The position numbers and the translations under genes were made by a program. Positions 13,646 to 41,383 of a stretch of 64,000 nucleotides of DNA are shown here, piece by piece. A model generated the notes under the pieces. The model searched no databases and had not been told where the DNA came from. It was given only the letters and a program-made list of their open reading frames with translations. Positions within the stretch are counted from its first letter, which is position 1. Each line of letters opens with the position of its first letter. Source of the stretch: Cyanophora paradoxa CCMP329 (Eukaryota; Plantae; Glaucophyta); assembly GCA_004431415.1 (NCBI GenBank), contig QPMI01000535.1:310001-374000 (forward strand), in the 5' to 3' direction.

Positions 13646-13683
13646 ACGACATCCAAACAATCATTAACTACATCATTTTTTAG

Positions 13684-13932
13684 TAACTACGCAACTACAT
13701 AGCGAAGCTACGCAATTTAATACCGGCAACTACGCATTTAATACCAAAACTACGCAACTACGCAACTTTCAGAAAAAGTTTGAAACTCGGGGCGGGAAAA
13801 ATTTTGAAAAGCGCAAAAGTTGCGTAGTTGCGTAGTTTTGGTATTAATTGCGTAGTTTTGGTTTCAAGTTGCGTAGTGTTTCAAGGAAAGTCAAGTAGTT
13901 TCATGTAGTTTATCATATTAATTAAGTAGTTT
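13684..13932. promoter_or_regulatory. Iteron palindrome (AACTACGC arrays in inverted orientation), putative replication origin
   Basis: Multiple AACTACGC, a ~45-bp spacer, then multiple GCGTAGTT, immediately downstream of the primase-helicase stop. Confidence 0.65.
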
Positions 13933-14019
13933 ATTATTTTGTATACTATATATCGTGCCATTCTCAAAATTTGACAAAGGTATATAAGCCTTTCTCTGAT
14001 TGTATATACTGACAACACA

Positions 14020-14256
14020 ATGACCGCTATCAGACCTACCTATACGCATGTCCTGACTGCGGACGAGATCACCCAAACCGCGACCATGGATATTGAAGCC
14101 ACACAGGATCTTTTCAGGCGAATATTCGGTTACTACCCGAATTGCCGCGGTAAAAAGACAAAAACCCATGTTATCAAATCTGACACTATGCAACTGACAA
14201 TAGAGCTGCCCGAAAACGTAAGACTAACGGTAAGAAGTGTCACAAAGCTAACTTAG
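14020..14256 (+). CDS. Hypothetical protein
   Basis: 78-aa ATG ORF preceded by the CAAAATTTGA motif seen before other element genes. Confidence 0.5.
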   Translation: MTAIRPTYTHVLTADEITQTATMDIEATQDLFRRIFGYYPNCRGKKTKTHVIKSDTMQLTIELPENVRLTVRSVTKLT

Positions 14257-14266
14257 GCACTTGCAA

Positions 14267-14761
14267 TTAATGGTATTGTTGCAAACTCTCAATACGACAA
14301 ACTGGACAGGAAAAACGTTGTTTATAAGTCATTTCGGATATGCAAGATTCACACACAGAACTATTACACTGCGCACAAGCTAAATCTTCCGTTTTTATAA
14401 CCTCTAAACAAATCACACACTTAACTTCCCCATCTTGTTTTTTAGAAAAGCCCGATATAACATTTTGTATTACCTCAATGCATTTCTCTTTCGTAATGTC
14501 AAGTGGTATTAACATTTTATATCCTTTGTAAACCAATGCGCATATGTGCTGCCTACGAGGATGGTAAAACTGGGAAGCCATATTAAGATGTAAAAACATG
14601 TCCTGATGTTTACGCGTTTGTGATATAACAAAGATTACCTTCTTACGGGCATTCTTCTTTTCCCATTTGAGATAGTTCTTGTCTGTGCATTCTTTTGTTG
14701 CTTCTGTTACGGGAATATTTGTAAGTGTCTTACAATATTCTATTATCTCTTGGGTATTCAT
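14267..14761 (-). CDS. RING-finger protein (putative E3 ligase)
   Basis: CVIC...CAQC....CESC...CPVCR at the C-terminus. Confidence 0.8.
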   Translation of the reverse strand: MNTQEIIEYCKTLTNIPVTEATKECTDKNYLKWEKKNARKKVIFVISQTRKHQDMFLHLNMASQFYHPRRQHICALVYKGYKMLIPLDITKEKCIEVIQNVISGFSKKQDGEVKCVICLEVIKTEDLACAQCNSSVCESCISEMTYKQRFSCPVCRIESLQQYH

Positions 14762-14892
14762 TGTGTTTCTCTATATCTGATACACATAAAATGTTTTCCT
14801 CCGTGTCATTTTTTGAGATGTCCTTAAATATGTTTCCACATTTTTTGAACGCGTCCTTTCCCCGAAATTAAAATGTTCCCTTAGAGTAAAAG

Positions 14893-17800
14893 ATGCCCCG
14901 CCAAACTAATCGCCTTATAAAAGAGAAAAAGGACGAAATATTAGGCTTGTTAGGTAGTCTTTTAGTCACTGGGGAGATCACCGAAGCCGAATATGATCGT
15001 AGGGCGGCGATCTTAGATCGAAAACCCCGCTTAGCTAACCTTGCGAATATTGCCGACGAGCTTTACAATCGCCTGGAAAATGTGGAGCGCTTCTATACCG
15101 AAGGGAGGCGCTTAGCCGTCATAGAACCCGATGAGGAAGACGGTTTCGCAATGAATAAAGCGTATGCCTGGTATAGCTATAAGGCGGATGAACAGATAAT
15201 CTTAGATCCGGTGGAATTTCTCACTACCATCGCTGCAAACCTGCCTGGGCGGCTGAAAGAACGGCTGGACGAGCTTAAAGCTATTAAGGTGCGCCTTACT
15301 TTCATCTGCCGATACGTAAAAGTGAGTGATCCTAACGTTTTTATCACTAAACACATTTATAGCGATTATTTCGTAATCACAAGGTCGCGCAATATTCTCA
15401 CTGAGTTAGTGGGTGTAGCTCAGCAAATGAATGAACAGATGATACAGGTCGACAGCTACCGGCTAAGTAAATTAGATAAGCTACATGTCGCCGTTTTGTC
15501 GTATGCGCCGATGGGCGGTTGCTACATTGAGACCCCCGAATGGATTGGATTAAAGCGAGCCACAGTAAATATTAAGAATATCGATGGTCACGACTGTTTT
15601 AATTACGCTATCCTCGCATGGCTGCACAGAAACGACATAAACAGACACAAACGTAATGATCCGTTCCAATATAGGCGGTGGATGACTGAACTCGACTTCT
15701 CAGGCATTAATTTCCCGGTGGCTTGCGATGCTGCATTAATAGATCGTTTCGAGGACAATAATCCCGAGCTGTCAATTAATATATATGGCGCCGACAATGC
15801 GACCCAAACCTTTTACCCACTGCACATGTCAAGTAATCCGCGTCGTAAATCGAAGGTAAACCTGCTGCTGATCGAGGACGCAAACGGACAGGGTCACTAT
15901 ATTACGATCATGTCACTGAGCCGCCTATTAAAGACCACCTTTGATAAAGCAAACGACGGGCGCATTTTCTACTGCGAAACCTGTTTGTCCCGGTTTAGAT
16001 CACAGGAGAAACTCGATAGCCACACCGACTCTAATCGCTGTATCGATTGGCGGCTGAGTAAAGGTAAATGCCCGGAACCCGGAAGCTTTATTACTTTCGG
16101 ACTGCAACACCTAAGGAAAATGGTGTGGCTGCCCACTGTCTGCTACTGCAAGGTAGAGATGGAGTCGGTGCCGGTTCTTAATGAACCAAATAGAACTAAG
16201 CGAGAGGTAAAGTCGGTGGCACTCAATGTAGTTATGGGCTCGCATGTTGAAAATCACGAATTCGAGGGCGTGGATCCACTGGGACAGATGTTTACCACGT
16301 TAGGGGAACTGTGCCGCGAGATGCTTAATACCCTATTTACTAATACACCTATGATTCCGCTCACAGAGGCGCAAAAGCAAGCCTATAAGCTCACCAAGCA
16401 CTGCTATATATGCAATCAGCGGTTTACCCACGAAAACTTCCCTGTGCGCGATCACTGTCACCAAAGCGGCGATTATATAGGAAAAGCTTGCCGAAAATGC
16501 AATTTACATAGGAGGATCTCAAAGCAAACGAAAGTAGCCGTGGTAATTGATCGGATGGACGAGTGCGGACATGCTATATTCAGGAAAATCGCACAGCAAG
16601 ACGACAAGCTGCGGGTCGAGATCCTAAGTAAGAATTTCGACGAGTATCTCTCTTTACAGTGGGGACTTTACAAATTCATAGACGCCTCGAATTTCATGGA
16701 TTTTCAGGCGTCCGATGTTAATGATCTCATGGTAAAATTCGGTAAATTCAGTATGCTCGCCCATGAGCAATACGGACTGGATCCCACGCATTATGTGAGC
16801 GCACCGGGACTATCGTGGGACGCGATGTTAAAGCATACGAGGGTCGCGATAGAACAGATCAGCGATGCGGATCACTACGAATTTATTGAGCGGGCAATTA
16901 GGGGCGGCTTTGCGACCATGCCCACACGATATGCCGAGGCTAATAGCGAGGATAAACATATAGTGCTATTGGATGCGAATAATCTGTATGGCTATGCGCT
17001 CAGTCAGCCTTTACCGGTCGGGGACTATCGCTGGGACGACACAAGCACAGCTTTTACCGAGGTCGTAGGGCGGAGTGCATTTATAGAGGTCGACCTTGCG
17101 TATCCGGACTATTTAAAGGCTGACCATCGCGATTTCCCGCTGATCGTGAGTAAAGAGGTAATTACTGCGGACATGCTCGGCAAATATCAGCGTGGGCTTT
17201 TGGAGATTAGCGGCGAGAAGCTCAGTAAAGATCCGAAGCTGATCGCCTCGTTTACTCCGAAATATAATTACGTGGTCTCTCAGCCGATGCTGCTCTATAT
17301 GGTAAAAAAGGGGATCGTAGTTACTAAGATTCACCGCGTGCTTTCGTTTGCAACCGCTGCATTTATGAAGCCCTATATAGATCTAAACACGAAACTGCGC
17401 AAGGAAGCCCGGAATAAATTCGAGAGCGACTTCTTTAAATTGATGAATAATGCTATTTACGGTAAATGTCTGGAATCGTGTCGCGGGCGCTCCGTGGTAA
17501 AGATCGCGAATAGCACGAAGCTGTTTAAGAAATATGCGGCGAGCCCACTGGTAAAAGCGACGAATGTATTAAACGAGACTGCGGTCGCATTCGAAATGTA
17601 TAGTAAACACGTAAAACTCGATAAACCGGTCGCTATTGGCGCTTATGTGCTGGATGCCGCGAAGCTGCATAATTATAGCTTCTTTTACGACGTGATCCGA
17701 CCGACTTTCTCGCAAGCTCAGCTGCTGTTCCACGATACCGATTCGTTCTGTCTGTATATAGAGAGCGCGGATCTGGAAGCGGGCATGCGAGCGATCAGCC

Positions 17801-18156
17801 CTCATTTAGATTGCCCTTATAGTCCCGAGAACCGGATGGTTCCCGGTAAATATAAAAATGAGATGCCCGACGTCAAGATAGTGGAGTATGTGGGACTGCG
17901 ACCGAAACTATATGCTTTCCGCACCGAGAGCTTTGACAAAGTGAAAATGAGCGGGACAGCCTCGAAAGAGGTGCATTTCGACGACTTTAAGCGCTGCCTA
18001 TTTGACGGGATCACAAAAACAGTAACAGTAGTAAACAAGCAACGGCGATGCCACCACTTATATGATTTGGAGAGCAAGCGGATAGCGCTGACCCAATTCG
18101 ATAGCAAGCGCTGCATATCAGGCGACGGCATACATAGCCTTCCATTCGGCTGTTAG
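14893..18156 (+). CDS. polB: Polinton-type protein-primed family B DNA polymerase
   Basis: Motifs LLDANNLYG, KLMNNAIYGK, HDTDS, RPKLY; Zn finger CETC; endonuclease VII-like CYIC..RDHCH...CRKCN; vOTU-like DCF...GHY. Confidence 0.93.
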   Translation: MPRQTNRLIKEKKDEILGLLGSLLVTGEITEAEYDRRAAILDRKPRLANLANIADELYNRLENVERFYTEGRRLAVIEPDEEDGFAMNKAYAWYSYKADEQIILDPVEFLTTIAANLPGRLKERLDELKAIKVRLTFICRYVKVSDPNVFITKHIYSDYFVITRSRNILTELVGVAQQMNEQMIQVDSYRLSKLDKLHVAVLSYAPMGGCYIETPEWIGLKRATVNIKNIDGHDCFNYAILAWLHRNDINRHKRNDPFQYRRWMTELDFSGINFPVACDAALIDRFEDNNPELSINIYGADNATQTFYPLHMSSNPRRKSKVNLLLIEDANGQGHYITIMSLSRLLKTTFDKANDGRIFYCETCLSRFRSQEKLDSHTDSNRCIDWRLSKGKCPEPGSFITFGLQHLRKMVWLPTVCYCKVEMESVPVLNEPNRTKREVKSVALNVVMGSHVENHEFEGVDPLGQMFTTLGELCREMLNTLFTNTPMIPLTEAQKQAYKLTKHCYICNQRFTHENFPVRDHCHQSGDYIGKACRKCNLHRRISKQTKVAVVIDRMDECGHAIFRKIAQQDDKLRVEILSKNFDEYLSLQWGLYKFIDASNFMDFQASDVNDLMVKFGKFSMLAHEQYGLDPTHYVSAPGLSWDAMLKHTRVAIEQISDADHYEFIERAIRGGFATMPTRYAEANSEDKHIVLLDANNLYGYALSQPLPVGDYRWDDTSTAFTEVVGRSAFIEVDLAYPDYLKADHRDFPLIVSKEVITADMLGKYQRGLLEISGEKLSKDPKLIASFTPKYNYVVSQPMLLYMVKKGIVVTKIHRVLSFATAAFMKPYIDLNTKLRKEARNKFESDFFKLMNNAIYGKCLESCRGRSVVKIANSTKLFKKYAASPLVKATNVLNETAVAFEMYSKHVKLDKPVAIGAYVLDAAKLHNYSFFYDVIRPTFSQAQLLFHDTDSFCLYIESADLEAGMRAISPHLDCPYSPENRMVPGKYKNEMPDVKIVEYVGLRPKLYAFRTESFDKVKMSGTASKEVHFDDFKRCLFDGITKTVTVVNKQRRCHHLYDLESKRIALTQFDSKRCISGDGIHSLPFGC

Positions 18157-18561
18157 TCGTCTATCTTATCGTGCGTTCTTTTTCTTGGTTTGCGCTCTAA
18201 TTGAAGGAGCTGTCGCCTTAGGATATGTAAAAGCCATATGCACTTTAATCCGGGGTCGTCAGGGTCGATTAGGAAGTAATTGGGGATCGGGTGCGCGTCC
18301 CATATCGGGGCGTCCATTTTACTGTTTACTGCACGTTTTTATTGCGCGTTTTGCGGTGTTTATTGTCAGGATTTTCATTAATTATTAAAATCTCGACAAT
18401 AAACGCTCAGGTAGCCTGATTTTATTGACAGTAAACGTGAGAGTCTCACCACGATCGCTGTAAAAATTGAAAGCCCGTGGGCAACGCAAAATGATTTAAG
18501 GAGAACGCGCTACATTTAGGCAACAGGAAAATATTTTCTCAGGTTAAAGTAAAAGGCGACA

Positions 18562-19218
18562 ATGGACAACGCAATTGAAGGCGACGAACGTCAGCGCCAC
18601 CGATCGATAATGAGCATTCTAAAAGAAGGCAACCCTGTATTCGCTACCTTTCTTGGTCTGAATGATGAACAAATGAATACGATTATCCGTCTTGTTAGTC
18701 TGATGGATATTCAAAACATACTTTTCTCCGTGATCGGCTATTTTCCTGCAAACCCCAATAGAATGTATGGGAAAATGGTCGACAATCGCTTTTTCTGGTT
18801 TACGTATCCGGAAATACCGCACGAGGAGAGAAGGGAGTTATTCGAAGAAGACCCCAACGTAATTGCTGCCGATTTTGTGGAAGTGATCGACCCTGTTAAA
18901 GTATTTGAAGGATCTGGATTAGATGCGAATTCAGGCGATCTTCTATTCGCACTGATTCATGCTCAGGCTCAGAAGTCAGAAAAGAGGCGTGAGCGTGAAC
19001 GTCAGGAAGCGATGCGGCGCGTTTATTTAGATGTGCCGCGGAGAGACCTTTCACAGTCCTATCCTAAATTCGAAGCGCATGGATTAACTATTAAATCTCG
19101 GGCGACCTTGCGCAAATTCTTAAAGGAAAACGGGGCATCGTGGGACAAGCATAATGGGTGGTTTACATACGATAGAAACAGCATCGTTGTTAAGATCTTC
19201 CGCCCTGATTTACCGTAA
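18562..19218 (+). CDS. Hypothetical protein, C-terminal DUF5710-like motif
   Basis: VYLDVP...LKENGASWDK..GW; preceded by element promoter-like motifs. Confidence 0.6.
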   Translation: MDNAIEGDERQRHRSIMSILKEGNPVFATFLGLNDEQMNTIIRLVSLMDIQNILFSVIGYFPANPNRMYGKMVDNRFFWFTYPEIPHEERRELFEEDPNVIAADFVEVIDPVKVFEGSGLDANSGDLLFALIHAQAQKSEKRRERERQEAMRRVYLDVPRRDLSQSYPKFEAHGLTIKSRATLRKFLKENGASWDKHNGWFTYDRNSIVVKIFRPDLP

Positions 19219-19290
19219 ACAAACAATACCTTTTCTTGTCGCGTGCGAGTAAAATGTTACATTGATCTTTTTTATTGTCTGATGACAAGG

Positions 19291-20724
19291 ATGTCAAGAC
19301 CGCCCATAGTAAGACGATCGCAAGATTTAGAGGGGAGCACATTGCCGATCCCCGTGCCGAAAGAGAATAAAGAGAGCCGCATAGTAAAGCGGTCTGATTT
19401 AAAGGCTTTGGTGCCCCGCGATGTGCCCGTAGCCCTTGCTGTCCCGGAGGAATCGAAAATTGCCCGGAAGTTTTACAGCCCGCAAACCGGTTTCAAAGGG
19501 ATCACTAAGCTACGGCAAGAGCTGCCCGACGAGAATTATAAGAAATTGCAAGAGTGGTATAGCCGGCAAGAGGTCGTTCAGATTAATGCGCCGCACCTAT
19601 CCCGCAAACGAGACCCTGCTATACCGATCCGACAGCCTCTCGATACCTACGTAATTGATCTGCTATTCTTTCCGGCGTATGCTAAGTATAACGACGGCTA
19701 CCAAGCATTTTTAACAGGGATGGAGAACACGTTGCGCGTCGGATATATTATACCGATGCGGGATAAGTCCGCGGCGTCGACCTTAGCCGCCTTTATACAG
19801 CTGCAAAATAAGGCGCCGAGACCAATTTTTAAGATTCAAAGCGACCGCGGCTCAGAATTCACTAATAGCCTGTTAAGAGAATATTTCGAGAATCAGTTTA
19901 TCGAGCATCAGATTGCGGACACAGCCGACCATCGCGCGCAAGGGCGCATAGAAGCATTTAACAAGCAAATGCGGCGGCTGATCACGAGCTACTGCATCGC
20001 GAATAATACGGCTCGATTTATAGATGTCCTGCCCGAGCTGGAATATAATTATAATAATACGGTGCACTCTGCGACCGGCTATATGCCTGCCGAGACCAAC
20101 GAGAGTCACTATAAGCTTATAGTGCAAAAAGAAGATGCGAAATTCAAGAAATCGATAGCTTATTTGGATCAGATTCAGCCGGGCATGTCAGTAAGGCTAC
20201 GGATCGAGAAGACGCCATTCGCTAAGGGCGGTAACAATTGGAGCCGGATCGTCTATACTGTCGCCGGGCGCGAGGGCTATAAGTTTATGCTAACTGATCC
20301 GGACGGCAATCGCGTAGAGGGTCGCTTTGCATTTCACGAGCTATTCCCAGTCCAAGCTGTGGATTACCTAATGGCGCCCACAGTAGACGCATTAGAAGCG
20401 GCAAAGGACGAGGCGCGCGTCGATGCGCAATTGCGTAGAGAGGGCATAGAAGCCGCCGCGACTGTGCCGCAAGGCACTCTATTAGAAGATCGCGTGCAAA
20501 AAGAGAAACGCGTAAATAAAGAATTACAGCGGCTAGTAACAGCCGCCGAGCCTAAGCTATCCGGCGGCGTGAATAGCCAACGATGGTATAAGTCGTTCTC
20601 TAATCAAACTGAGAGCTATAAAGCGCCGGAAACCAAAGCTACATTAAGAAGTAGTAGAAAAGTAGCAACGGTAGCGCCGGTAGCTAATGGCGATCGAAAA
20701 GCGACTTTGAGACCACGAAAGTAG
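19291..20724 (+). CDS. int: Retroviral-like (rve) DDE integrase
   Basis: YVIDL, IQSDRGSEF, GRIEAFN, YNNTVHSATG, F.KG...NWS. Confidence 0.93.
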   Translation: MSRPPIVRRSQDLEGSTLPIPVPKENKESRIVKRSDLKALVPRDVPVALAVPEESKIARKFYSPQTGFKGITKLRQELPDENYKKLQEWYSRQEVVQINAPHLSRKRDPAIPIRQPLDTYVIDLLFFPAYAKYNDGYQAFLTGMENTLRVGYIIPMRDKSAASTLAAFIQLQNKAPRPIFKIQSDRGSEFTNSLLREYFENQFIEHQIADTADHRAQGRIEAFNKQMRRLITSYCIANNTARFIDVLPELEYNYNNTVHSATGYMPAETNESHYKLIVQKEDAKFKKSIAYLDQIQPGMSVRLRIEKTPFAKGGNNWSRIVYTVAGREGYKFMLTDPDGNRVEGRFAFHELFPVQAVDYLMAPTVDALEAAKDEARVDAQLRREGIEAAATVPQGTLLEDRVQKEKRVNKELQRLVTAAEPKLSGGVNSQRWYKSFSNQTESYKAPETKATLRSSRKVATVAPVANGDRKATLRPRK

Positions 20725-21092
20725 TAGGCGCCGCGGTGCTTTCGTAGCCGCCAAATCGCGCCCTTTGCGAATCAGACCGCGCCGCTTTGTAGTAGCGTAG
20801 AACTACTCTATACGCGCACGGATGCAAAGCATGACTAGTGGAGCCTCACGGGAACGCGCGCCGGCTCTCAGAATGTAGCGGACACCTCGATTTTCGGGCA
20901 CTTGTGCCTATGGCGAATTTGCACTTCTTGCCACGGTTGAGTTAGCTAGTCAAACTAGCACCAACATGCCCGGAATCAAGTTGTGAGCACGTAGCAATTG
21001 AGAGCGCGCCGAGATCGGCTTCCTGTCCAAAGTTATGCGGGGAAAACGGAAGGGGGGGTCTCCGCGAAGTCGCGATCGCCGGTGTTATCGAG

Positions 21093-21147
21093 TCGGGACT
21101 CGGGACTCGGGACTCGGGACTCGGGACTCGGGACTCGGAACTCGGGA
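21093..21147. repeat. (TCGGGAC)n heptamer tandem repeat
   Basis: About 8 consecutive copies. Confidence 0.9.
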
Positions 21148-21229
21148 AATTGCAACTTGCAAGCCGGTCAGTCGCTCAGCGGCTGGTCAGTCATATACAC
21201 ATATATATGCATTCAAGTTTTTGTTCGCA

Positions 21230-21790
21230 ATTTGTCCACAAAATGACCACAAACCCGGTAGCCCCGATGTCCACAAATGTCCACAAAATGCCACCTTTAC
21301 GGTATCCCCCCTGTCACGTTCTGTCACCTTAACCGGTATCCCCCCTGTCACGTTCTGTCACCTTAACCGGTATCCCCCCTGTCACCCATGAATGATAAAT
21401 TAAATAAAATAAAACAGTCGGTTCACATCCGCGATTGGTCGATCGATCGAAAAACACATAAAAAACTACTTTGTGGCATGCTATACGTTTTCGGACTCGC
21501 CGCAATGCGATGACGCCGAATATGTCGGTGACGCCGGTATATATATGTATATGTCGATAAATGAGAAAACAAAAAGAAAAACAAGCGGACGATTTCAGGA
21601 CTTTTCAGGACGATGGGGAAGAATTTCAGGACTTTTCAGGACTTTTCAGGACAATTTGCATATGTGTATAAGTATATACCATAGAAAAATACTACTTTAT
21701 GGCATGCTACATGTTTTCGGACTCGCCGCGATGTGATGACCCCGAATGTGTCGGTGACGCCGGTATATATATGTATATGTCGTCATATAG
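21230..21790. repeat. Cluster of short direct repeats (GTCCACAAA; 35-bp CTGTCAC unit; TTTCAGGAC) and a ~100-bp duplication (21461 / 21686)
   Basis: Visible directly. Confidence 0.8.
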
Positions 21791-22004
21791 AAAAAAAACA
21801 AAAAAAAACAAAAATTCAAAGTTGTGCGGGATTACACACACGGAGGTTCGGACATATATACGAAATATACACATGACTAAATCGTTATTGTTTTCATAGA
21901 ACTCGCATGTTGTTTGCATGTATCTTGCATAGTGGGCGGGGCGCACTGTTTCACACTAAGGTCAATCGATTTTCATAGAGTCTCAGACTGATAACAATAA
22001 GATA

Positions 22005-22228
22005 AATAATAAACTACTTTATAATTAATAAAAACTACTTTAAACTACTCAACTACCTATGTTAAACTACGCAACTTAATACCGGAAACTACGCCATTAA
22101 TACCAAAACTACGCAACTACGCAAGTTTTTCACTTCTCTAATTTTTTTCCCCGCCAACTTCTAAACTTTTTCAGAAAGTTGCGTAGTTGCGTAGTTTTGG
22201 TATTAAATGTGTAGTTTTCGGTATTAAA
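22005..22228. repeat. Copy of the AACTACGC origin-like palindrome, interrupted at 22228
   Basis: Matches the reverse complement of 13684-13932; its continuation TTGCGTAG resumes at 30375. Confidence 0.85.
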
Positions 22229-25200
22229 AGCGATCAGATCAGGCGAAGCCTCTTTCAGGCGAAGCCTCTTTCAGGCGAAGCCTCTTTCAGGCGAAGCCTC
22301 TTTCTCAAACCCAAAAACCGCCGATATAAATTCCTTTTTTAACCTTTTTTTCCACTCAAGATCCCCCCTGCTAAATAATTTCCGCGTCGCACTCCCTCGA
22401 GGACGAATTATTAATTCTGCCTCGACACGGACGCGATTGCCGCTAATGACTCAGCTACCCTAACCCCCACAGACCTCTCTAGATCCATTTTTAGCGTCGT
22501 GGCTCCCCTAAGACGACCGCTCGCCCGTGGGCGTCGCGCGAAAATCGAATTTCCCTCTGGATCAATTCCGGTACTTAACCTCCGACAAATGCAGTCCGAG
22601 TCAGAAGGTGGGACCCGGTCCCGCCCGGTCCCGCGACGAAATCGCGCCAGGGACGCCCCAGAACGATACAGAATGCCGCGCGAGGGCGAGCGCATCGCCG
22701 CAAGCTCGATTTCAAGCGCCGTCGACGCTCCAGTGCGAAGAGTCGGCCGAAAATTTGATCCAGCGCTAGCCGGTCCCGCCCGGTCCCGCGACGCGCGCAA
22801 TCGATGCGTACTGGCGCGCATGGACATAGCAGGGCCTGCGCACCCCCGAAATCCGCTTTTCGGAGCCGGAACAGCGCAGGAAGGTACCCGACGGCCAAAA
22901 TTCGATCCTGCACGCGCCCTGACATCTTTCCGCGCGCCCACGCCGCGGCGCATGCGCGGAACGATAGCATAAGCATTTAAGATGTAGGCAAAGTCTTCCG
23001 CACGCTTTGCGTATGCGACGGGCCGCGAGGACCCAGCCGACCCCGAAAATTCGATCCTGCATGGACCTGCACATCTTTCCGCGCGCCCTCGCCTCGAGCT
23101 CCGCAGCCCCGCACATCGATGCTATAGCTATATGCATTCAAGATTCTGTTTAAGCGATTCGCAAGCTCTGTGCATGCGCCTGGCCGCGAGAACCTTGCCC
23201 CTCCCGGGCCTCCCTCTCAACAATATTATATATAATTCATCTCCTCTAATCTCAACCTGCTCCGGCCTCCCTTTATTTCCTCAGTACATTAATATTCCTC
23301 TAGTTATATTCCTCTAGCCGGCCAGCGGTAGCTGGACTGGCCGTCAGCCGGCCAGCTTCCAACCAGAAAGCTGTTCGCGATCGGCCAGGCCGCTGGCCAG
23401 TGCCCTATAGGCCTACTGTGACAGCCGCGAGGGCGTCCGCGAGGCTTCGCCGTACTTAGTGCTCCGCAGGAGCACGGATCTTGTCTCAAACCCAAAAACC
23501 GCCGATATAAATTCCTTTTTTAACCTTTTTTTCCACTCAAGATCCCCCCTGCTAAATAATTTCCGCGTCGCACTCCCTCGAGGACGAATTATTAATTCTG
23601 CCTCGACACGGACGCGATTGCCGCTAATGACTCAGCTACCCTAACCCCCACAGACCTCTCTAGATCCATTTTTAGCGTCGTGGCTCCCCTAAGACGACCG
23701 CTCGCCCGTGGGCGTCGCGCGAAAATCGAATTTCCCTCTGGATCAATTCCGGTACTTAACCTCCGACAAATGCAGTCCGAGTCAGAAGGTGGGACCCGGT
23801 CCCGCCCGGTCCCGCGACGAAATCGCGCCAGGGACGCCCCAGAACGATACAGAATGCCGCGCGAGGGCGAGCGCATCGCCGCAAGCTCGATTTCAAGCGC
23901 CGTCGACGCTCCAGTGCGAAGAGTCGGCCGAAAATTTGATCCAGCGCTAGCCGGTCCCGCCCGGTCCCGCGACGCGCGCAATCGATGCGTACTGGCGCGC
24001 ATGGACATAGCAGGGCCTGCGCACCCCCGAAATCCGCTTTTCGGAGCCGGAACAGCGCAGGAAGGTACCCGACGGCCAAAATTCGATCCTGCACGCGCCC
24101 TGACATCTTTCCGCGCGCCCACGCCGCGGCGCATGCGCGGAACGATAGCATAAGCATTTAAGATGTAGGCAAAGTCTTCCGCACGCTTTGCGTATGCGAC
24201 GGGCCGCGAGGACCCAGCCGACCCCGAAAATTCGATCCTGCATGGACCTGCACATCTTTCCGCGCGCCCTCGCCTCGAGCTCCGCAGCCCCGCACATCGA
24301 TGCTATAGCTATATGCATTCAAGATTCTGTTTAAGCGATTCGCAAGCTCTGTGCATGCGCCTGGCCGCGAGAACCTTGCCCCTCCCGGGCCTCCCTCTCA
24401 ACAATATTATATATAATTCATCTCCTCTAATCTCAACCTGCTCCGGCCTCCCTTTATTTCCTCAGTACATTAATATTCCTCTAGTTATATTCCTCTAGCC
24501 GGCCAGCGGTAGCTGGACTGGCCGTCAGCCGGCCAGCTTCCAACCAGAAAGCTGTTCGCGATCGGCCAGGCCGCTGGCCAGTGCCCTATAGGCCTACTGT
24601 GACAGCCGCGAGGGCGTCCGCGAGGCTTCGCCGTACTTAGTGCTCCGCAGGAGCACGGATCTTGTCTCAAACCCAAAAACCGCCGACCGAAATTCCTTTT
24701 TAACCTTTTTTTCCACTCAAGATCCCCCCTGCTAAATAATTTCCGTGTCACACTCCCTCGAGGCAGAATTATTAATTCTGCCTCGACACAGACGCGATTG
24801 ATGGACATTACACAGCTGCCCGAACCCCCACAGACCCTCTACATCCATTTTTAGCGTCCTGGCTCCCTAAGACGACCGCTCTCCCGTGGGCGTCGCGCGA
24901 AAATCGAATTTCCCTCTGGATCAATTCCGGTACTTAACCTCCGACACATGCAGTCCGAGTCAGAAGGTGGGACCCGGTCCGCCCGGTCCCGCGACGAAAT
25001 CGCGCCAGGGACGCCCCAGAACGATACAGAATGACGCGCGAGCGCGAGCGCATCGCGGCAGGCTCGATTTCGGGCACCCTCGACGCTCCAGTGCGAAGAG
25101 TCGGCCGAAAATTTGATCCGGCCGGTTCCGGCCGGTCCCGCGACGTGCGCAATCGATGCGTACGGGCGCGCATAGACATAGCAGGACCTGCGCACTCCAG

Positions 25201-28200
25201 CGATCCGCTTTTCGGAGCCGGAACAGCGCAGGAAGGCTCCCGGTGGCAAAAATTCGATCCTGCACAGCCCCGGACATCTTTCCGCGCGCCCGCGCCGCGG
25301 CACATGCGCGGAAGAATAGCATAAGCATTTGAGATGTAGAAGAAGCCTTCCGCACGCTTTGCGTATGCGCCGGGCCGCGAGGACCCAGCCGACCCCGAAA
25401 ATTCGATCCTCTACAGACCTGAAGACCTTTTCTTGCGCGCTCGCATCCTCGCGCATGCGCATCGCTACAATATTCATTTCACATTTTTTTGAAGCCTTCC
25501 ACAAGCTTTGAAGACGCGGAAGAGCACGACAACCCAGCCGACGGTAAAAAATCGATTCTGAACAGACCCGGACATCTTTCCGTGCGCCAACGCCGCGGCG
25601 CATGCGCGGAACAATATGATAAGCATTTCAGATGTAGACAAAGCCTTCCGCACGCATTGCAGATGTGCCGGGCCGCGAGCCGACGCCGAAAATTCGATCC
25701 TGGACGGACCTGCACAGCTTTCCGCGCGCCCTCGCATCCTCGCGCGTGCGCATCGCTACAATAGTAATTTGAGATCTTTGTTAAGCTTTTCGCGAGCTCC
25801 GAGGACGCGACAGGGCGCGAGAATCCAGCCGACCCCGAAAATTCGATCCTGCATGGACCTGCACGTCTTTCCGCGCGCCCTCGCCTCCGCAGCCCCGCAC
25901 ATCAATGCTATATGCATTCGATCGCGAGATTCTGTTTAAGCGATTCGCAAGCTCTGTGCATGCGCCTGGCCGCGACAACCTCGCCCCTCCCGGGCCTCCT
26001 TCCCAACAATATTATAATTAATCTCTTCTCAATCTGCTCCACCCTAGCCTTTATTTCCTCAGTAAATTAATATTCCTCTAGCCGGCCAGCGCTAGCTGGA
26101 CTGGCCGTCAGCCAGCCAGCTTCCAGCCAGCTGCAGAAAGCTGTTCGCGATCGGCCAGGCCGCTGGCCAGTCGCTGAGTGCCCTATACATAGGCCTACTA
26201 TGACAGCCGCGAGGGCGTCCGCGAGGCTTCGCCGTACTTAGTGCTCCGCAGGAGCACGGATCTTGTCTCAAACCCAAAAACCGCCGACCGAAATTCCTTT
26301 TTTAACCTTTTTTTCTACTCGAGATCCCCCCTGCTAAATAATTTCCGTGTCACACTCCCTCGAAGCAGAATTATTAATTCTGCCTCGACACGGACGCGAT
26401 TGATGGACATTACACAGCTGCCCGAACCCCCACAGACCTCTCTAGATCCATTTTTAGCGTCCTGGCTCCCCTAAGACGACCGCTCGCCCGTGGGCGTCGC
26501 GCGAAATCGAATTTCCCTCTGGATCAATTCCGGTACTTAACCTCCGACAAATGCAGTCCGAGTCAGAAGGTGGGACCCGGTCCCGCCCGGTCCCGCGACG
26601 AAATCGCGCCAGAGAGACCCCAGAACGATACACAATGACGCGCGACGGCGAGCGCATCGCCGCAAGCTCGATTTCAAGCGCCGTCGGCGCTCCAGTGCGA
26701 ACAGTCGGCCGAAAATTTGATCCGGCCGGTTCCGCCCGGTCCCGCGACGCGCGCAATCGATGCGTACTAGCGCGCATAGACATAGCAGCGCCTCCGCACC
26801 CCCGAAATCCGCTTTTCGGAGCCGGAATAGCGCAAGAAGGTACCGGACATCAAAAATTCGATCCTTCACAGGCCTGGACATCTTTCCGCGCGCCCGCGCC
26901 GCGGCGCATGCACGGAACAATAGTATAAGCATTTGAGATGTAGAAGAAGACTTCCGCACGCTTTGCGTATGCGCCGGGCCGCGAGGACCCAGCCCACCCC
27001 GAAAATTCGATCCTGGACGGACATGTGCATCTTTCCCCGCGCCCTCGCATCCCCACGCATGCCCATCGCTACAGTATTCATTTGAGATCTAAACGAAGCC
27101 TTCCGCGACCTCTGTGGCCGCGACAAAGCACGAAAACCCAACCGACGCCAAATTTGCGATCCTGGACACTGGGAAAGGCTACACGGGGCGTAACCGGTTT
27201 AAGCTCACAGCGAGCCGCAACAGTTCCGAGGGGCCCCCCCCGGACCCCCCCAGGACCCCCCCAGGCCCCCCCCAGGCCCCCCCGGCCCCCCCCGGGCTCC
27301 GGACAGACCTGCACATATTTCTGCGCGCCCTCGCCTCCGCAGCCCTGCACATCGGTGCTATATGCGTTCGAGATTCTGTTTAAGCGATTTGCAAGCTCTG
27401 TGCATGCGCCTGGCCGCGAGAACCTCGCCCCTCCCGGGCCTCCTTCCCAACAATATTATATAATTAATCTCCTCTCAATCTGCTCCACCCTTTATTTCCT
27501 CAGTACATTAATATTCCTCTAGCCGGCCAGCGCTAGCTGGACTGGCCGTCAGCCAGCCAGCTTCCGAGTCCAGCCAGAAAGCTGTTCGCGATCGGCCAGG
27601 CCGCTGGCCAGTCTCAAACCCAAAAACCGCCGACCGAAATTCCTTTTTTAACCTTTTTTTCCACTCAAGATCCCCCGTGCCAAATAATTTCCGTGTCACA
27701 TTCCCTCGAGACAGAATTATTAATTCTGCCTCGACACAGACGCGATTGATGGACATTACACAGCTGCCCGAACCCCCACAGACCCCTCTAGATCCATTTT
27801 TAGCGTCCTGGCTCCCCTAAGACGACCGCTCTCCCGTGCACGTCGCGCGAATTTCGAATTTCCCTCTGGATCAATTCCGTTACTTAACCTCCGACAAATG
27901 CAGTCCAAGTCAGAACGTGCACGTGGAACCCGGTCCCGCCCGGTCCCGCGACGAAATCGCGCCAGGGACGCCCCAGAACGATACAGAATGCCGCGCGAGG
28001 GCGAGCGCATCGCCGCAAGCTCGATTTCGGGCGCCCTCGACGCTGCAGTCCGAACAGTACGCCGAAATTTGATCCTCCCGGTTCCGGCCGGTCCCGCGAC
28101 GCGCGCAATCGATGCGTACTGGCGCGTATAGACATAGCACGGCCTGCGCACCCCCGAAATCCGCTTTTCGGAGCCGGAACAGCGCAGGAAGGTACCCGAC

Positions 28201-30374
28201 GGCAAAAATTCGATCCCACACGGCCCCGGACATCTTTCCGCGCGCCCACGCCGCGGCGCACGCGCGGAACGATAGCATAAGCATTTAAGATGTAGAAGAA
28301 GACTTCCGCACAGTTTACGGATGTGCCGGGCCGCGAGGACCCAGCCGACCCCGAAAATTCGATCCTGGACGGACCTGCACGTCTTTCCGCGCGCCCTCGC
28401 AGAAGCGCGGCCCTGCAGGCATGTACCAGCACTTGAGAATCTCCGGCACGTCTTGACCGCCCTCCGCATCGCGCCTGTATCGCATAGCTCTTGGTCGCAC
28501 TCCCTCGAGCCAGAATTATTAATTCTGCCTCGACACGGACGCGATTGCTGCTGGTAACACACCCACCCGAACCCCCACAAACCTCTCTACATCCATTTTT
28601 AGCGTCGTGGCTCCCCTAAGACGACCGCTCTCCCGTAGGCGTCCCGCGAAAATCGAATTTCCCTCTGAATCAATTCCGGTACTTAACCTCCGACAAATGC
28701 AGTCCAAGTCAGAACGTGGAACCCGGTCCCGCCCGGTCCCGCGACGAAATCGCGCCAGGGACGCCCCAGAACGATACAGAATGCCGCGCGAGGGCGAGCG
28801 CATCGCCGCAAGCTCGATTTCGGGCGCCCTCGACACTCCAGTGCGAAGACTCCGCCGAAAATTTGATCCAGCCGGTCCGGCCCGGTCCGCGACGCGCGCA
28901 ATCGATGCGCACTGGCGCGCATAGACATAGCAGGGCCTGCGCACCCCGAAATCCGCTTTTCGGATGCCGAACAGCGCAGGAAGGTACCCGATCGCGCGAC
29001 GGCAAAAATTCGATCCTGCACAGCCCCGGACATCTTTCCGCGCGCCCACGCGCGGCGCATGCGCGGAACAATAGCATAAGCATCTGAGATGTAGACAAAG
29101 CCTTCCGCACGCTTTGCCGATGCGCGGGCCGCGGGACCCAGCCCACCCCGAAAATTCGATCCTCTACAGACCCCGCGGGGACCCAGCCGACCCCGAAAAT
29201 TCGATCCTTCACGGACCTGCACATCTTTCCGCGCGCCCTCGCGTCCTCGCGCATGCGCATCGCCACAATATTCAGTTGAGATTTTATCAAAGCCTTCCAC
29301 AGACTTCGAAGACGCGAAAGAGCACGAGAACCCAGCCGACGGCAAAAATTCGATCCTGCACGGGCCCGGCCATCTTTCCGCGCGCCCACGCTGCGGCGCA
29401 TGCGCGGAACAATAGCATAAGCATTTAAAATGTAGAAGAAGACTTCCGCACGGTCTCTAAATGCACCAGGCCGCGAGGACCCAGCCGACCCCGAAAATTC
29501 GATCCTGTACGGACCTGAACATCTTTCCGCGCGCCCTCGCATTCTCGCGCATGCGCATCGCCACAATATTCATTTGAGATTTTATCAAAGCCTTCCACAA
29601 GCTTCGAAGACACGAAAGAGCACGAGAACCCAGCCGACGGCAAAAATTCGATCCTGCACGGACCCGGACATCTTTCCGCGCGCCCACGCCGCGGCGCATG
29701 CGCGGAACAATAGCATACGCATTTGAGATGTAGACAAAGCATTCCGCACGCTTTACAGATGCGCCGGGCCGCGGGGACCCAGCCGACCCCGAAAATTCGA
29801 TCCTTCACGGACCTGCACAGCTTTCCGCGCGCCCTCGCATCCTCATGCATGGGCATCGCTACAATATTCATTTGAGAGCTTTTCAAAGCGTAGCGCAAGC
29901 TCCAAGGGCGCGACAGGGCGCGAGAACCCAGCCGACCCGAAAATTCGATCCTGCATGGACCTGCAGGTTTTTCCTCGCGCCCTCGCCTCCGCAACCCTGC
30001 ACATTGATACTATATGCATTCGAGTTTCTTTTTAAGCGATTCGCAAGCTCTGTGCATGCGCCTGGCTGCGATCGCGAGAACCTCGCCCCTCCCGGGCCTC
30101 AAATATTATATATTTATTCTCCTCTCAATATGCTTTACCTGTTAAAAGCAAGCCAGTCCAACTCTTCCCCTAATTATTAATTCCTTCTCCTAATTAATTA
30201 CATTCCTCTCTAGCTGGCCAGCCAGGCCTCTGGCCGCCAGCTTCCAGCCAACCAGCTGTTCGGCCGGGCCGCTGGCCAGCTGCAGTGCGCTACGCCTACT
30301 GTGACAGCCGTGCGCGCGCGAGGGCGGCCGCGAGGCTTCGCCGTACTTAGTGCTCCGCAGGAGCACGGATCTTG
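22229..30374 (+). mobile_element. Non-autonomous Helitron2/Helentron-like tandem array
   Basis: 5' (TCAGGCGAAGCCTCTT)x4 at 22239-22302. Units start 22303, 23484, 24665 (1181-bp period), 26266, 27612 and ~28500. Most units end GAGGCTTCGCC (inverted to the 5' motif) + hairpin GTGCTCC-GCA-GGAGCAC + GGATCTTG. Internal ~100-200-bp subrepeats. Confidence 0.7.
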
Positions 30375-30845
30375 TTGCGTAGTTTTCATGCGTAGTTACG
30401 TTAAATTGCGTAGTCTACCGGGAGTCCGCATGCATTTAGGTGCGAGACTATTGCGTAGCCTATAAAACGGTCGTGTTTCAGTGCGAAACTATCGCGTAGC
30501 TTCCCTTGTAGTATGCCGGCGCTCTTTTCAGTAGAGAAAGCATGGTATATATCATAGAATCATATTGATATTAATAAGAAACTACTTTATAATATATAAA
30601 CTACTTGAAACTACTCATCTTACCATGAAAAACTACGCAATTCGAAACCAAAACTACGCAAACGAAACCAAAACTACGCAACTACGCAAGTTTTTCACTT
30701 TTCTAAATTTTCCCGCCCCGAGTTTCAAACTTTTTCTGAAAGTTGCGTAGTTGCGTAGTTTTGGTATCTTTTCAGTAGTTCCCGGTATTAAATTGCGTAG
30801 TTTCTTTGAGTAGTTGCGGTAAATTGCGTAGTTTCTATGTGTAGC
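30375..30845. repeat. Remainder of the interrupted palindrome plus a complete copy of the element-1 origin-like palindrome (~30575-30845)
   Basis: TTTCCCGCCCCGAGTTTCAAACTTTTTCTGAAAGTTGCGTAGTTGCGTAGTTTTGGTAT is identical to the reverse complement of ~13741-13799. Confidence 0.9.
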
Positions 30846-30893
30846 CGCACGATCTCGATGCGAAACTCATGCATTTACGTGCTAATCAGTAAG

Positions 30894-31265
30894 GTGTTAC
30901 AGGTGTTACAGGTCTATCCCAAAGTTTCCTATCCCCCACCCCTCCTAGGGCAAAGTTTGGGATGAACCTGTAACACCTGTAACACTGACCTAATTCAGTA
31001 AGAACCTATTAAAACAACAAAATATCAGTCTTAGTATATCATAATAATATCAGTAGTAATTATTTTTGTATTATAACGATCAATTTCGTATCGTTTTCAG
31101 TGCGAAACTATTCACTATCACATATTTTCGATGCGCGCGAAATGTTTTATGCAGCACACGATAATTGTTTACGTTGTTACAGGTGTTACAGGTCTTGCCC
31201 AAACTCGGAACCAAGACCCCACTCCTAGGGCGGACTTTGGGATAAACCTGTAACACCTGTAACAC
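30894..31265. repeat. Two palindromic cassettes with TGTTACAGG / CCTGTAACA iterons (30894-30985, 31175-31265)
   Basis: (TGTTACAGG)x2 - spacer containing CTCCTAGGGC - (CCTGTAACA)x2, twice. Confidence 0.85.
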
Positions 31266-31427
31266 TGAATAAGACCAATTAAAATACAAAAGAATCAATC
31301 ATAATATATCATAGATCTACTTTGTTTTATAGAGAGCCGCATACAGAACGTTCCATGCAGCTCATGGTAGTTGTTTTTGATAAAACGGCGCGTGATCGTC
31401 GCTTTTATATTGAAAATTCAGAACAAC

Positions 31428-31827
31428 ACACATATACAACGCCCGGCTTTTAGACTGAGGCAAGTTATAATTAAACTAAGTTGAGTCACACCTAAACTAT
31501 AATGAATCTCACGAGATATATAAGTCTACTCATCGAGAATATAGCTAAACTTCACATAAACTATACATATTTCACATATTTTATTAAAAAGAAGCTATAA
31601 CCCACGATAAAATAAATTTTTTTTTTAAGATCTACGGTGGGCGTGCCCACTCGTAGTACACAACGAGGATACAAGTCACGGTATCGGGAATCACAGGGAT
31701 AAAATAAATACATATCACAGATAAAATACACACATATTCACGATAGATATATTATAAATACAGGTTATATACTAACGAGATCAATTTAAATAAGCCGAGG
31801 TCTAAAAGCCGGGCGTTGTATATGTGT
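31428..31827. repeat. 28-bp perfect inverted repeat flanking an AT-rich ~345-bp spacer
   Basis: ACACATATACAACGCCCGGCTTTTAGAC at 31428-31455, reverse complement at 31800-31827; no clear TSD. Confidence 0.75.
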
Positions 31828-32670
31828 TCTGCTGTACCTGAGTTTTCATCTTTTGTCCTTGACCGGGTCCGGACTTTCCCATCGAAATCGAGCTCAATTG
31901 CAAGCTTGCCATCGGCTAGGTCGCGACAAATGCATATGTACAACTCAATATCATTCTACGACAGGTCTTCCGCTGGGTCTCGACAACTTCGAATACGGCG
32001 ATCGCGAGCGTCCCATACTGTGCGTTCAATTGCAAGGCATCATCGATATCAATATGTGTCAATCACGCGACGGCGCCAATACGGCGCCAATACTACATTA
32101 TAAATTAAACATTAATTATGCATTCAATGACATGATTAATCCCCTTTCGGACAGGGCCATCCAGTGCCGCGCCATCGGTATCTACGGTATCCTCTAAAAC
32201 TGCTTGCATTTGATGTTAATGAAAAGTTTATAGTTATAATTAATTGAATCCTTTCGCAGCTCGCGAGTGCGACGGCCGTGCTTATGAGCATCGTAGCAGC
32301 GGTGGCGACTGCAGCTGTGCGCACGTGAGCCGGAGTCCCTTCAGCTTTAATTCGAACCCTTCAGCTTTAATTTAACTTGTGAGAGGCTCTAGAATAAAGT
32401 GTTTCTGCACATGGTCGTGCACGTGCACACACCCGTGCTCATGAAGGCACGAACACGGGACTCGGTGCTCGGCCCGGCGGCCAGCTGCAGGCCTGGGCCC
32501 AGGGTGCACTGCGGCAGCTGCGTGCACGCGGCGCCAGCGCGCTCCCAGAGATCTAGAGGCACCAGCTCTCATAATCAAGCTCACCAGAGAGATCTAAGGC
32601 GCTGCTGGGCACCCTCGCTCTGCATCCAAAGTTCAGAAATAAAACGAAACAACAAGCAGGGGGCCCATGA

Positions 32671-39318: not shown

Positions 39319-41079
39319 CAAGACACCCGCTCACGCGGGGAAGGCCCCCCCCCCTTCCCCGCACCCCTTCCCACCCATCCAGATTCCTTCGAGTTATGCA
39401 GATCGAAGGGGAAGAACATTGATTTAAATCAGTACACGAGCTCAATAAAAGATCAAGGTAGATCCAAGTAGATGTAGATCTAGATCTTGTTTCGCAATAT
39501 AGCTAGCGCTAGTGCTACTGAGAGCTTCGAATATCAGAAGAGCATGCATAAATATTCTTGAGACCTGGAACCGTGCAGGCTCATCCAAAATGAGAGAGGC
39601 GTGTGTAGGATCGATTTTCCTGGAGAGGCAAGTGTAGGATCGATTTTTCGGTTCAGACTGGATTTCGATGGGGTTTCGCGCGCTTATAGCGAGCTTAACA
39701 TCAAATAAACATCAAACGAACACAGTCAGTTGATGCCCGTGTGCCTGGAGGGGAGGGCGTGCGGAAACATTGATGGGCGTGCCCAGGATCGAATTCGACT
39801 GCGAAATCAGTACACGAGCTCACTGAGTCAATCAAAGACCAAGGTAGATCTAAGCTTAAGTAGATCTAGATCTGTTTCGATTTTCGTGAGCCTAGTGCTA
39901 GTGAGAGCTGCTGAGGTCGGGCGTCTTCGGATTTAAACCATGCATCGCTAGATAAACATCACAAGAGCATGTACAGATATTCCTGAGAGCTGGAGCAGTG
40001 CAGGCGCATCGAGAACCAGAAAGGCATGTGCAGGATCGATTTTCCGGTTCAGACTGGATGTCGGAGGCTTATCCCGCGCGTATAGCATGCTAAATTTCAG
40101 ATAAGCATCCAACGAACACAGCGACTTGATGCCCGTGCGCGTGGAGGCGCGGGTGTGCGAAAAGGTTCAAAAGGTTCAAGGGCGTGCCGAGGACCGAATT
40201 CGACTGCAGCCCGGGTTCCCGGGGCCCGGCGCGTGCCTGGAGCATGCGAAACGCTTACTTTATATCCAACATGCATACCGTATCGATGCGCGCGCGCGCC
40301 GCAGCGTGGGCGCGCGGAAAGGTCGATGGGAGAATGCATAATCGCATTTTTCAGCAGTTTACTTTCTCGAGCTGTGCCGGCGTTCGAAGGCGGATTTCTG
40401 GCCTGCGCAGGCTTTGTTTAGTCAATGCGCATCTGTGTGCATTGCTCTCGGGTGTTGGCAGACAGGAATCGGCTGGCCCATGCCTGTGGATCAAATTTTC
40501 GAGTGACTCGGATCGATTCCGAAATTTCGGGGTGACTGCGAGCTTGAATTCAACCTTTCCACCGGCATGTTAGCGATATTTAGCATGCGCTGCGTCGCTC
40601 GCAGTGCTCGCTTCGGCGCCGTGTTGCGTCGTGGGGCGGCTGGAAAATTTTCCAGGGTCCCACCTTCGCTGCAAGTCGTGGGTTGACGCGGTTCAAATAC
40701 CCGCCTGAGAACTTCCGATTTCGGTTGCGGTTTTAGCCTAGCGGTTAGGATTCTCGGTTCCGGGTCTGAAGTTCCGGGTTCGAATTCGACCGGGAGGATT
40801 CCCTCCTGAGGGCACGCACAGGGCACGGACAGGGCACCGATTGGACACGGATAGAATCGAAGGTGGATTTCGAGGGCTTAACCCGTGCGACAGTGGTCGA
40901 AGATATAACATATGATATACTAGAGGGGAAGTTAATGGCACGGACGAATCACCGAGCGGGCACCGATAGGGCACGGTGCTGGGACGGTGGGGGCGGAAGT
41001 TGAGGGGAGCAGTCGTAGTGGAGTGCCGCCTGGAGTAATTCGTGCGGCGACCTGGGAAAAAATTATGGGGGGGGCCCAA
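39319..41079 (-). mobile_element. Second, diverged Helitron2/Helentron-like non-autonomous element
   Basis: Minus strand ends CCCGC-GTGA-GCGGG hairpin + TGTCTTG. GGCCCCCCCC (39343) and GGGGGGGGCC (41067) form an inverted pair. Internal similarity to the reverse complement of the 22.3-30.4 kb units (GCGTGGGCGCGCGGAAAG, GGATCAAATTTTCG). Confidence 0.55.
40727..40796 (+). pseudogene. tRNA-derived (Glu-like) sequence with Pol III A and B boxes
   Basis: TAGCCTAGCGGTTAGGATTC...CCGGGTTCGAATTC; acceptor and anticodon stems do not pair properly. Confidence 0.4.
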
Positions 41080-41142
41080 TTAATTGTAGCAAAAGTAACG
41101 TACCCCCAGAGAATCTTTTACAATCATTTACACTATACCTAA

Positions 41143-41383
41143 CACAGCTCGTTTTTTTTCCTAATCGACCCAACACGGCCCGGATATGGGCAAGGGTAGC
41201 CGGCGATCGCGATAACTTTTCACCCGCCGCAGAACGGCTAGTCTCCTCGCAACCGCTTGTAGCCGGCAAGCTACCGGGTAGATTGCACTAGCTAAAGCCG
41301 GGGAATTCCAAAAACCCGAGGGGAATTTAACGAAACCGGATATTTGGCCGTGTCGGGTCGACCGGTAAAAAAAACGAGCTGTG
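41143..41383. mobile_element. MITE, ~38-bp imperfect TIRs, TAA target duplication
   Basis: TAA|CACAGCTCGTTTTTTTT...AAAAAAAACGAGCTGTG|TAA. Confidence 0.8.

Follow-up and report, generated by a model that had tools for sequence, protein, structure and literature searches.

A gene-free array of predicted virus-type origins in Cyanophora paradoxa and its possible role as a multi-helper satellite

We analysed a 64,000-nucleotide stretch of the Cyanophora paradoxa CCMP329 genome (contig QPMI01000535.1, positions 310,001 to 374,000; hereafter the window), in which a gene-free array of iteron cassettes lies outside a Polinton-like element, element 1, about 170 bp beyond its end. Once an 8.1-kb Helitron-like insert is taken out, the array forms a non-coding unit of about 2.5 kb (21230-31850), which contains two AACTACGC palindromes, two TGTTACAGG palindromes and helically phased half-arrays of GTCCAC, TGTCAC and CAGGAC. 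Judging from the sequence, we give about an even chance to the reading that this unit is an origin-only, multi-helper satellite using the origins of several virus-type primase-helicases. The initial annotation had proposed that the locus gathers origins suited to different primase-helicase variants, and this was well supported by the winged helix modelled in the element 1 helicase, by the conserved iteron cores and by the repeats found behind helicases in other viruses. It had left open whether the locus is a satellite or a host decoy. The satellite is favoured because the unit is multi-copy, variable and holds complete origins, which does not settle the choice; neither an excision signal nor a circle or RNA of the unit came to light.

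Composition of the gene-free unit

All parts of the previously described series of consecutive cassettes were present. On the left, GTCCAC (three copies) and TGTCAC (five copies) occupy 21230-21390 with 10-bp phasing and a 34-bp tandem duplication, and CAGGAC (five copies, also with 10-bp phasing) occupies 21592-21655 and is followed by an AT-rich stretch. The three half-arrays, which confirmed the earlier description, each lie on a single strand with a spacing of mostly 10 bp. Linker L was found by sequence comparison in two copies (21460-21584 and 21686-21811) with 87% identity. The first copy starts with ACTACTTT and contains ATGAC/GTGAC, which may serve the TGTCAC block as an inverted arm. 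Next comes cassette C1 (22002-22238), a AACTACGC palindrome with a 58-nt spacer whose right arm resumes at 30375, behind the Helitron-like insert. The rest of C1 is joined to a linker with GTGCGAGACT and TTTCAGTGCGAAACTAT (30375-30570), and is followed by C2 (30570-30832), a second AACTACGC palindrome with a 57-nt spacer. Cassette C3 (30850-31060) consists of the leader TCGATGCGAAAC, two copies of TGTTACAGG, a 54-nt spacer, two copies of CCTGTAACA and an AT-rich flank. C4, with its linker and leader (31095-31325), is a TGTTACAGG palindrome with a different spacer sequence, also of 54 nt. All these features were read on the plus strand. The two TGTTACAGG palindromes (30894-30985 and 31175-31264) show 75.5% identity, and the shared linker TTTCAGTGCGAAACTAT was confirmed at 30476 and 31095. 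At the right end of the multi-copy unit (31411-31848), an AT-rich loop is enclosed by an imperfect inverted repeat of 45-49 bp. The end of the array had been placed at 31320, which was too early, as contig depth extends the multi-copy unit to about 31830-31850. The left end falls between 21062 and about 21230.

The two AACTACGC cassettes are indeed copies of the palindrome behind the element 1 primase-helicase. C1 (22002-22228) is 82.7% identical to it over 225 nt and C2 (30573-30818) is 86.3% identical over 249 nt, both in inverted orientation. The longest stretch that C2 shares exactly with it measures 60 bp (13741-13800 versus 30758-30699), not the 59 bp given before. The TGTTACAGG cassettes had been described as having the same architecture. 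This held for the inverted arms and for the 54-58-nt spacer but not for the GTTRC core, whose direction is outward in the AACTACGC cassettes but inward in the TGTTACAGG ones. In C1 and C2 the spacers are rich in T around a GC core, in C3 and C4 they are mixed, and the most AT-rich part is the flank of one arm. At least two short opposed iterons on each side were found in the element 1 palindrome and in C1-C4, but not in the three half-arrays.

The length of the inner spacer is kept (58, 58, 57, 54, and 54 nt in element 1, C1, C2, C3, and C4, respectively) while its sequence varies. Differences between C1 and the element 1 palindrome affected 0 of 50 core positions and 40 of 181 non-core positions (p 3e-5); the corresponding numbers were 2 of 60 and 31 of 191 for C2 (p 0.008), and 0 of 24 and 37 of 138 between C3 and C4 (p 0.001). 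A GT-led core (GTTGC, GTTAC, GTCAC, GTCC) is common to most of the repeats, and we take it to resemble the RFX half-site GTTRC. The most frequent 8-mer occurred 6 times in the left part of the unit and 11 times in the right part, compared with a maximum of 4 in 200 dinucleotide shuffles of each.

The absence of a gene, noted in the initial annotation, was confirmed: the longest ATG open reading frames (ORFs) wholly within the unit have 50-70 codons, with none above 70, and an Rfam scan of the unit gave nothing at gathering score, only sub-threshold hairpin matches. An ORF of 118 codons (21035-21391) crosses the adjoining minisatellite and the iteron repeats. A promoter reading based on two words resembling the E2F consensus (TTTCCCGC at 30709 and GCGCGAAA at 31135) was dropped, as two words are too few.

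The element 1 helicase and related repeats in other viruses

The primase-helicase of element 1 (11231-13645, plus strand) comprises a Prim-Pol domain, a D5/SF3 helicase and a C-terminal winged helix at residues ~713-790. Its sequence matched Pfam Prim-Pol (weakly), D5_N and DUF5906, and TIGR01613 above the cut-off. A structure model built from 85 sequences (pLDDT 88) aligned with the SaPI5 PriRep protein 7ola (Z 25.9) and with the pRN1 primase (Z 12.6). In this model, residues 713-790 aligned with the RFX DNA-binding domain 1dp7 (Z 11.5, rmsd 1.9) and residues 709-793 with the P4 origin-binding domain 1ka8 (Z 7.8, rmsd 2.4). The C-terminal domain is thus a predicted origin-binding winged helix. 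A single-sequence model of this domain was inconsistent (pTM 0.37) and was not used.

The iteron palindrome of element 1 (13685-13939) starts directly behind this gene. Its first iteron lies 40 nt past the helicase stop codon, its arms enclose a 58-nt spacer, and its distal flank is AT-rich. As in origins of the type of staphylococcal pathogenicity islands (SaPIs) and phage P4, the palindrome adjoins a primase-helicase, and the initiator combines an SF3 helicase with a predicted winged helix. We therefore predict that the palindrome is a replication origin, and the structural model makes the element 1 helicase the likely cognate initiator for the AACTACGC iterons. The cassettes of the array, unlike the element 1 palindrome, are detached from any gene. 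In SaPIs, Reps bind iterons directly downstream of rep, in two opposed groups flanking an AT-rich centre (PMC9371898); pRN1 requires a stem of 21 nt whose loop measures 58 nt, located 54 bp behind the primase-helicase gene (PMC4234260).

Four of the unit's five repeat types were found right after primase-helicase stop codons in unrelated viruses. This search covered TGTCAC, CAGGAC, GTTACAGG and AACTACGC. Flanks were present for 80 of 99 viral TGTCAC loci and for all 45 CAGGAC loci, and Pfam covered 52 of 94 candidate ORFs. A D5/P4 or VapE SF3 helicase accompanied the TGTCAC tandem in 26 of the 80 loci, and in 20 of the 80 the tandem lay within -300 to +400 nt of the helicase stop. These 20 loci form 15 clusters at 90% identity and 10 at 50%. 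Five further TGTCAC loci were linked through Pfam to DUF3987, AAA_25 or DUF5906 proteins. Several of the TGTCAC virus origins (L346, L339) share a two-plus-two layout with C3 and C4. The Fisher value for TGTCAC (20/80 versus 1/124) is too strong on account of related genomes, and the sets used for comparison also consist of iterons. Of the 45 viral loci with a CAGGAC tandem, 3 have it behind a D5/SF3 helicase, and two of these 3 are nearly identical. For GTTACAGG, with at least 121 loci, a primase-helicase preceded the repeats in 2 of the 79 whose flanks were examined (Pfam covered 32 of the 79 nearest ORFs), and several non-coding clusters among these 79 had no helicase in view. AACTACGC stood behind a primase-helicase in the single viral locus and in 3 of 79 metagenome loci, one of which is nearly the same as the viral locus and another a giant-virus D5 gene.

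Other comparisons were negative. Among 36 GTDB loci with a AACTACGC tandem, none matched D5, VapE or Cch queries (0/36), and none of 32 scanned nearby ORFs was a primase or SF3 helicase. Exact two-armed palindrome patterns gave 0 matches in viral contigs. No loci related to the element 1 helicase were found in viral or metagenome contigs, where a looser alignment gave only giant-virus-type D5 loci. A palindrome of 3+3 iterons was absent behind giant-virus core D5 genes (0/74, compared with 6+6 iterons behind element 1); 74 of 79 genes were scored, and five were dropped for lack of a Walker A match or for a short flank.

Two side observations were made in these sets. Locus L285 carries a giant-virus-type D5 gene at 910-4477 (C962R-like primase, split by a stop codon), with three TTGCGTAG repeats about 35 nt past its end, and it differs by these downstream repeats from the 74 core D5 loci. 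Phages L009, L035, L042, L067, and L070 contain large non-coding GTTACA/TGTAAC iteron clusters, mostly beside terminase genes and with no helicase in view.

The multi-copy family and its possible explanations

At least 0.61 of the sequence words of 12400-22300 are contained in 20 public DNA runs from 19 studies, and one of these runs may be the source of the window itself. Relative to the unique flank, the depth of the unit was about 22x in run X13 and 12-18x in run X1 (left array bin and single right-part contigs), a rough measure, as the baseline was one adjacent unique contig per run (18 in X13, 100 in X1) and contig depth is not copy number. Past about 31830-31850 the depth fell to the level of the unique flank. 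A contig of X13, unbroken over 31149-31601, connects C4 to the right-end inverted repeat, whose depth equals that of the array.

The copies differ in content. In X1, some contig joints delete C3 and C4 together and others put a GCACAG half-array where C3 would be; all of these joints fall at copies of the TCGATGCG leader. Several other spacers occur between the TGTTACAGG arms in other copies, and a TATCCAC array follows 21947 in three runs. Two weak joints, with sides of fewer than 30 letters, run from 30398 to 30859, skipping C2, and from 21556 to 21891. The family thus holds at least seven repeat types, and change occurs at repeated linkers.

From these data, the following mechanism is proposed for a satellite. 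A resident Polinton-like virus (PLV) or related element would express a primase-helicase, whose winged helix would bind the cassette that matches it, in the manner of SaPI and P4. At the AT-rich flank, the hexamer would then load, prime, and replicate the unit in trans. With every additional repeat type, one more helper would become available, and recombination between the repeated linkers and leaders would allow cassettes to be gained, lost or swapped. Binding would also drain the initiator from the helper, so that the unit may curb the virus. A bolder extension is that such units form a class of eukaryotic elements that collect origins, add cassettes for new helicase specificities, and are copied by and suppress several endogenous PLVs, in effect an updatable antiviral library at the DNA level without proteins or RNA guides. 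We regard this extension as doubtful.

Several results weigh against the satellite reading. The depth of the unit was 0.73-0.97 of that of the element 1 integrase and 0.35-0.44 of that of the terminal repeat, steady over four runs; this speaks against separate episomal amplification in those samples and leaves room for a physical tie of the copies to element 1 ends. The enrichment over the flank also depends on the single-contig baseline. No terminal repeat, target duplication or att core joining the two ends of the unit was found, and the similarity of these ends was at chance level, being reached by 197 and 211 of 1000 shuffles. With no end signals, a route of mobility is missing. The copy in the window, which bears two later inserts, may be dead. 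The core conservation may predate capture, reflecting earlier selection, or may stem from arm-to-arm conversion. For three of the four repeat types, the link to helicases was seen in 2-4 loci each, most GTTACAGG matches among the loci listed were coding (collagen-type repeats), and the linked origins belong to phages or giant viruses, not to helpers of this host.

The foremost rival, which we consider unlikely, is that the array is an end module (a long terminal repeat, or a region like the baculovirus homologous regions, hr) of a larger virus-like element whose origins serve that element. Element 1 or a deletion would have cut the array from its coding body, or the element 1 family would insert beside it. 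The steady depth ratio to the element 1 integrase fits this explanation, as does the position of the unit, which starts no more than about 170 bp from the end of element 1 and closes in a long inverted repeat at array depth; palindromes have also been reported at the termini of PLVs and virophages (bioRxiv 10.64898/2026.07.28.741278). Against it, a terminal repeat belonging to element 1 itself ends at 21061 with about twice the integrase depth, and a GGGACTC minisatellite with other single-depth forms separates this end from the array. Apart from the palindrome, no non-coding part of element 1 or 2 matched the array. We think it quite improbable that the unit is a neutral composite repeat, in which pieces of the origins of dead viruses, taken up a single time, would have grown by local duplication and unequal crossing-over and then spread in a passive way. 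The internal tandem duplications (the 34-bp TGTCAC unit and the two L linkers), the two secondary inserts and the repeat-rich neighbourhood would suit it, but the cassettes carry no coding remnant, the repeat types, at least seven in number, follow one another with nothing else in between, and the spacer length is kept despite differing spacer sequences.

Slightly less probable again is a host decoy or memory locus, in which the cell keeps viral iterons so that they titrate initiators or give rise to small RNAs directed at viral origins. One-strand half-arrays could hold an initiator and yet make no two-armed origin, and the copies differ in content like an acquired library. However, four of the cassettes, as complete origins flanked by AT-rich DNA, would risk unscheduled firing in a chromosome; repeat-spacer regularity is absent, the window holds no associated host gene, and the many copies fit a selfish element. 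The initial annotation had also named what would overturn its proposal, namely that the palindrome is a dispersed host miniature inverted-repeat transposable element (MITE) that jumped into element 1, absent from sibling elements and flanked by target-site duplications, and that the other iterons have no link to helicase genes. As a rival, the palindromes would be host MITEs nested in each other, one of which jumped into element 1. They are palindromic, short and multi-copy, and a bin of the TGTTACAGG arm has a very high summed depth. Contrary to this explanation, no target-site duplication surrounds the element 1 palindrome, and divergent sibling helicase contigs continue into the same palindrome in three runs. 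One low-depth form lacks 13733-14024, and this is a deletion and not an empty site, because the left iterons are kept and extra flank is lost. In addition, the arms are phased iterons matching helicase origins elsewhere, and neither a target-site duplication nor a clean empty site was found for the unit. We thus regard MITEs as very improbable.

The unit was also compared with other element classes. Polintons carry terminal inverted repeats of the form 5'-AG...CT-3'. The element 1 terminal repeat had no match in the unit and the ends of the unit are not alike, so it does not qualify as a non-autonomous Polinton. Nor does the unit have the integrase and replication genes of its own by which phage satellites are recognised.

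Neighbouring features and relation to known systems

The window has a GC-rich background (75%) and contains two Polinton-like elements. Element 1 extends from before position 1 to about 21061 and encodes an A32 ATPase, the primase-helicase, pPolB and an rve-like integrase; in the Pfam scan, pPolB and A32 were above the cut-off and rve was below it (E 0.007). Together with a terminal repeat recognised by depth, these genes place it among the PLVs. Its ORF at 6160-7608 is 36% identical to the element 2 counterpart and had zero sequence matches in Pfam, NCBIfam and PDB; from size and gene order alone, it may be a candidate double jelly-roll major capsid protein. The putative right terminal inverted repeat (20736-21061, ending ...GGGGGGGTCT) was placed by its depth, which at 20983 was 1.7-2.7 times that of the integrase gene in four runs, and by a loose contig end before 20736 in run X4. 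The depth of the helicase gene was about 1/4 of the total pPolB depth (14893-18156) and about 1/3 of the integrase depth; the helicase-origin module seems to be present in only some members of the element 1 family.

Two secondary inserts interrupt the unit. Helitrons have a 5' TC, a 3' hairpin followed by CTRR, and an A|T target without duplication. The tandem array at 22239-30374 (plus strand), which lies outside the unit proper, agrees with this: it has a 5' TC, the 3' hairpin GTGCTCCGCAGGAGCAC followed by CTTG, a variant of CTRR, and an A|T target whose empty site is joined in a contig of X13. It is built of units of about 1.18 kb with 149-bp subrepeats. No Helitron-type ends were seen by eye at the inferred ends of the iteron array itself, the left of which is placed only within 21062 to about 21230. 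The second insert is an 80-bp, poly(A)-tailed retroelement 3' end (31618-31697, minus strand) with the 12-bp target duplication GATAAAATAAAT, supported by a bin of very high depth and an empty-site joint from 31611 to 31704. Older inverted relatives of the Helitron-like subrepeat, together with a 39-bp inverted-repeat pair resembling a MITE, lie at 39426-40430 and 41142-41384.

Element 2 begins near 43117, where it apparently cuts an EF-hand-like host gene (42234-43116, minus strand; by eye). Within 45818-52935 it encodes a long fibre-like protein, which contains an S74 chaperone domain, and a patatin-like phospholipase. Its pPolB is split over three ORFs (59829-63036) and is probably frameshifted. 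Repeated GACTTTGGACAAAAGTTCACGTC units occur at 63136-63582, and their core ACTTTGGACA, also found in the element 1 terminal repeat (21022-21033), is possibly a shared cis signal. At its far end, a histone H3-like coding sequence was recognised by eye (63600-64000, minus strand).

Repeated origins or palindromes that are copied in trans and can interfere with a helper are familiar from the defective-interfering genomes of SV40, from herpes amplicons and from baculovirus hr regions. Such genomes and regions repeat the origin of one virus, whereas the array mixes several types and its family is chromosomal. With regard to replicons, SaPI, P4 and pRN1 have, like element 1, a primase, an SF3 helicase, a C-terminal winged helix and an origin right behind the gene (PMC9371898, PMC4234260); these replicons have their own rep gene and one origin, whereas the array is gene-free, has several specificities and lies in a eukaryotic chromosome. 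In its working the unit would resemble staphylococcal plasmids mobilised by a relaxase in trans (PMC4993578) through multiple mimics of the transfer origin (oriT), non-coding copies of helper origins with up to 3-4 variants per molecule, which are thought to widen the helper range. Those are transfer origins on self-replicating plasmids, whereas in the array predicted replication origins make up the whole element. Begomovirus deltasatellites resemble the unit in being small, non-coding, helper-dependent DNA satellites, but in PMC4756297 they are single-stranded, replicate by rolling circle from a TAATATTAC stem-loop, have no cassette library and are not described as integrated. A sequence search found no TAATATTAC stem-loop in the unit.

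In line with our reading of element 1, PMC11296320 proposes that the primase-helicase of a PLV recognises an origin in cis close to the gene; it places that origin in the terminal inverted repeats, whereas here it would be an iteron palindrome inside the element, of which copies are also found separate from the virus. An origin-only, multi-iteron element of PLVs was not found in the literature, subscription papers and bioRxiv supplements aside, nor by term search in the accessible text of PMC10120064, PMC12220804 (its two supplements for the species name only) and bioRxiv 10.64898/2026.07.28.741278. The unit is a real and unusual feature, and with confidence about midway we consider it a variant of the helper-dependent non-coding satellites.

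The locus points to an internal iteron origin of SaPI/P4 style in a PLV, which is directly testable by binding. It also suggests a further layer of parasitism, in which a gene-free element gathers the origins of several helpers. If this is true, the unit would be a eukaryotic double-stranded DNA counterpart of the multi-oriT plasmids and the deltasatellites; it would provide a natural set of initiator-iteron pairs, and it might help to explain how the host tolerates many endogenous viruses.

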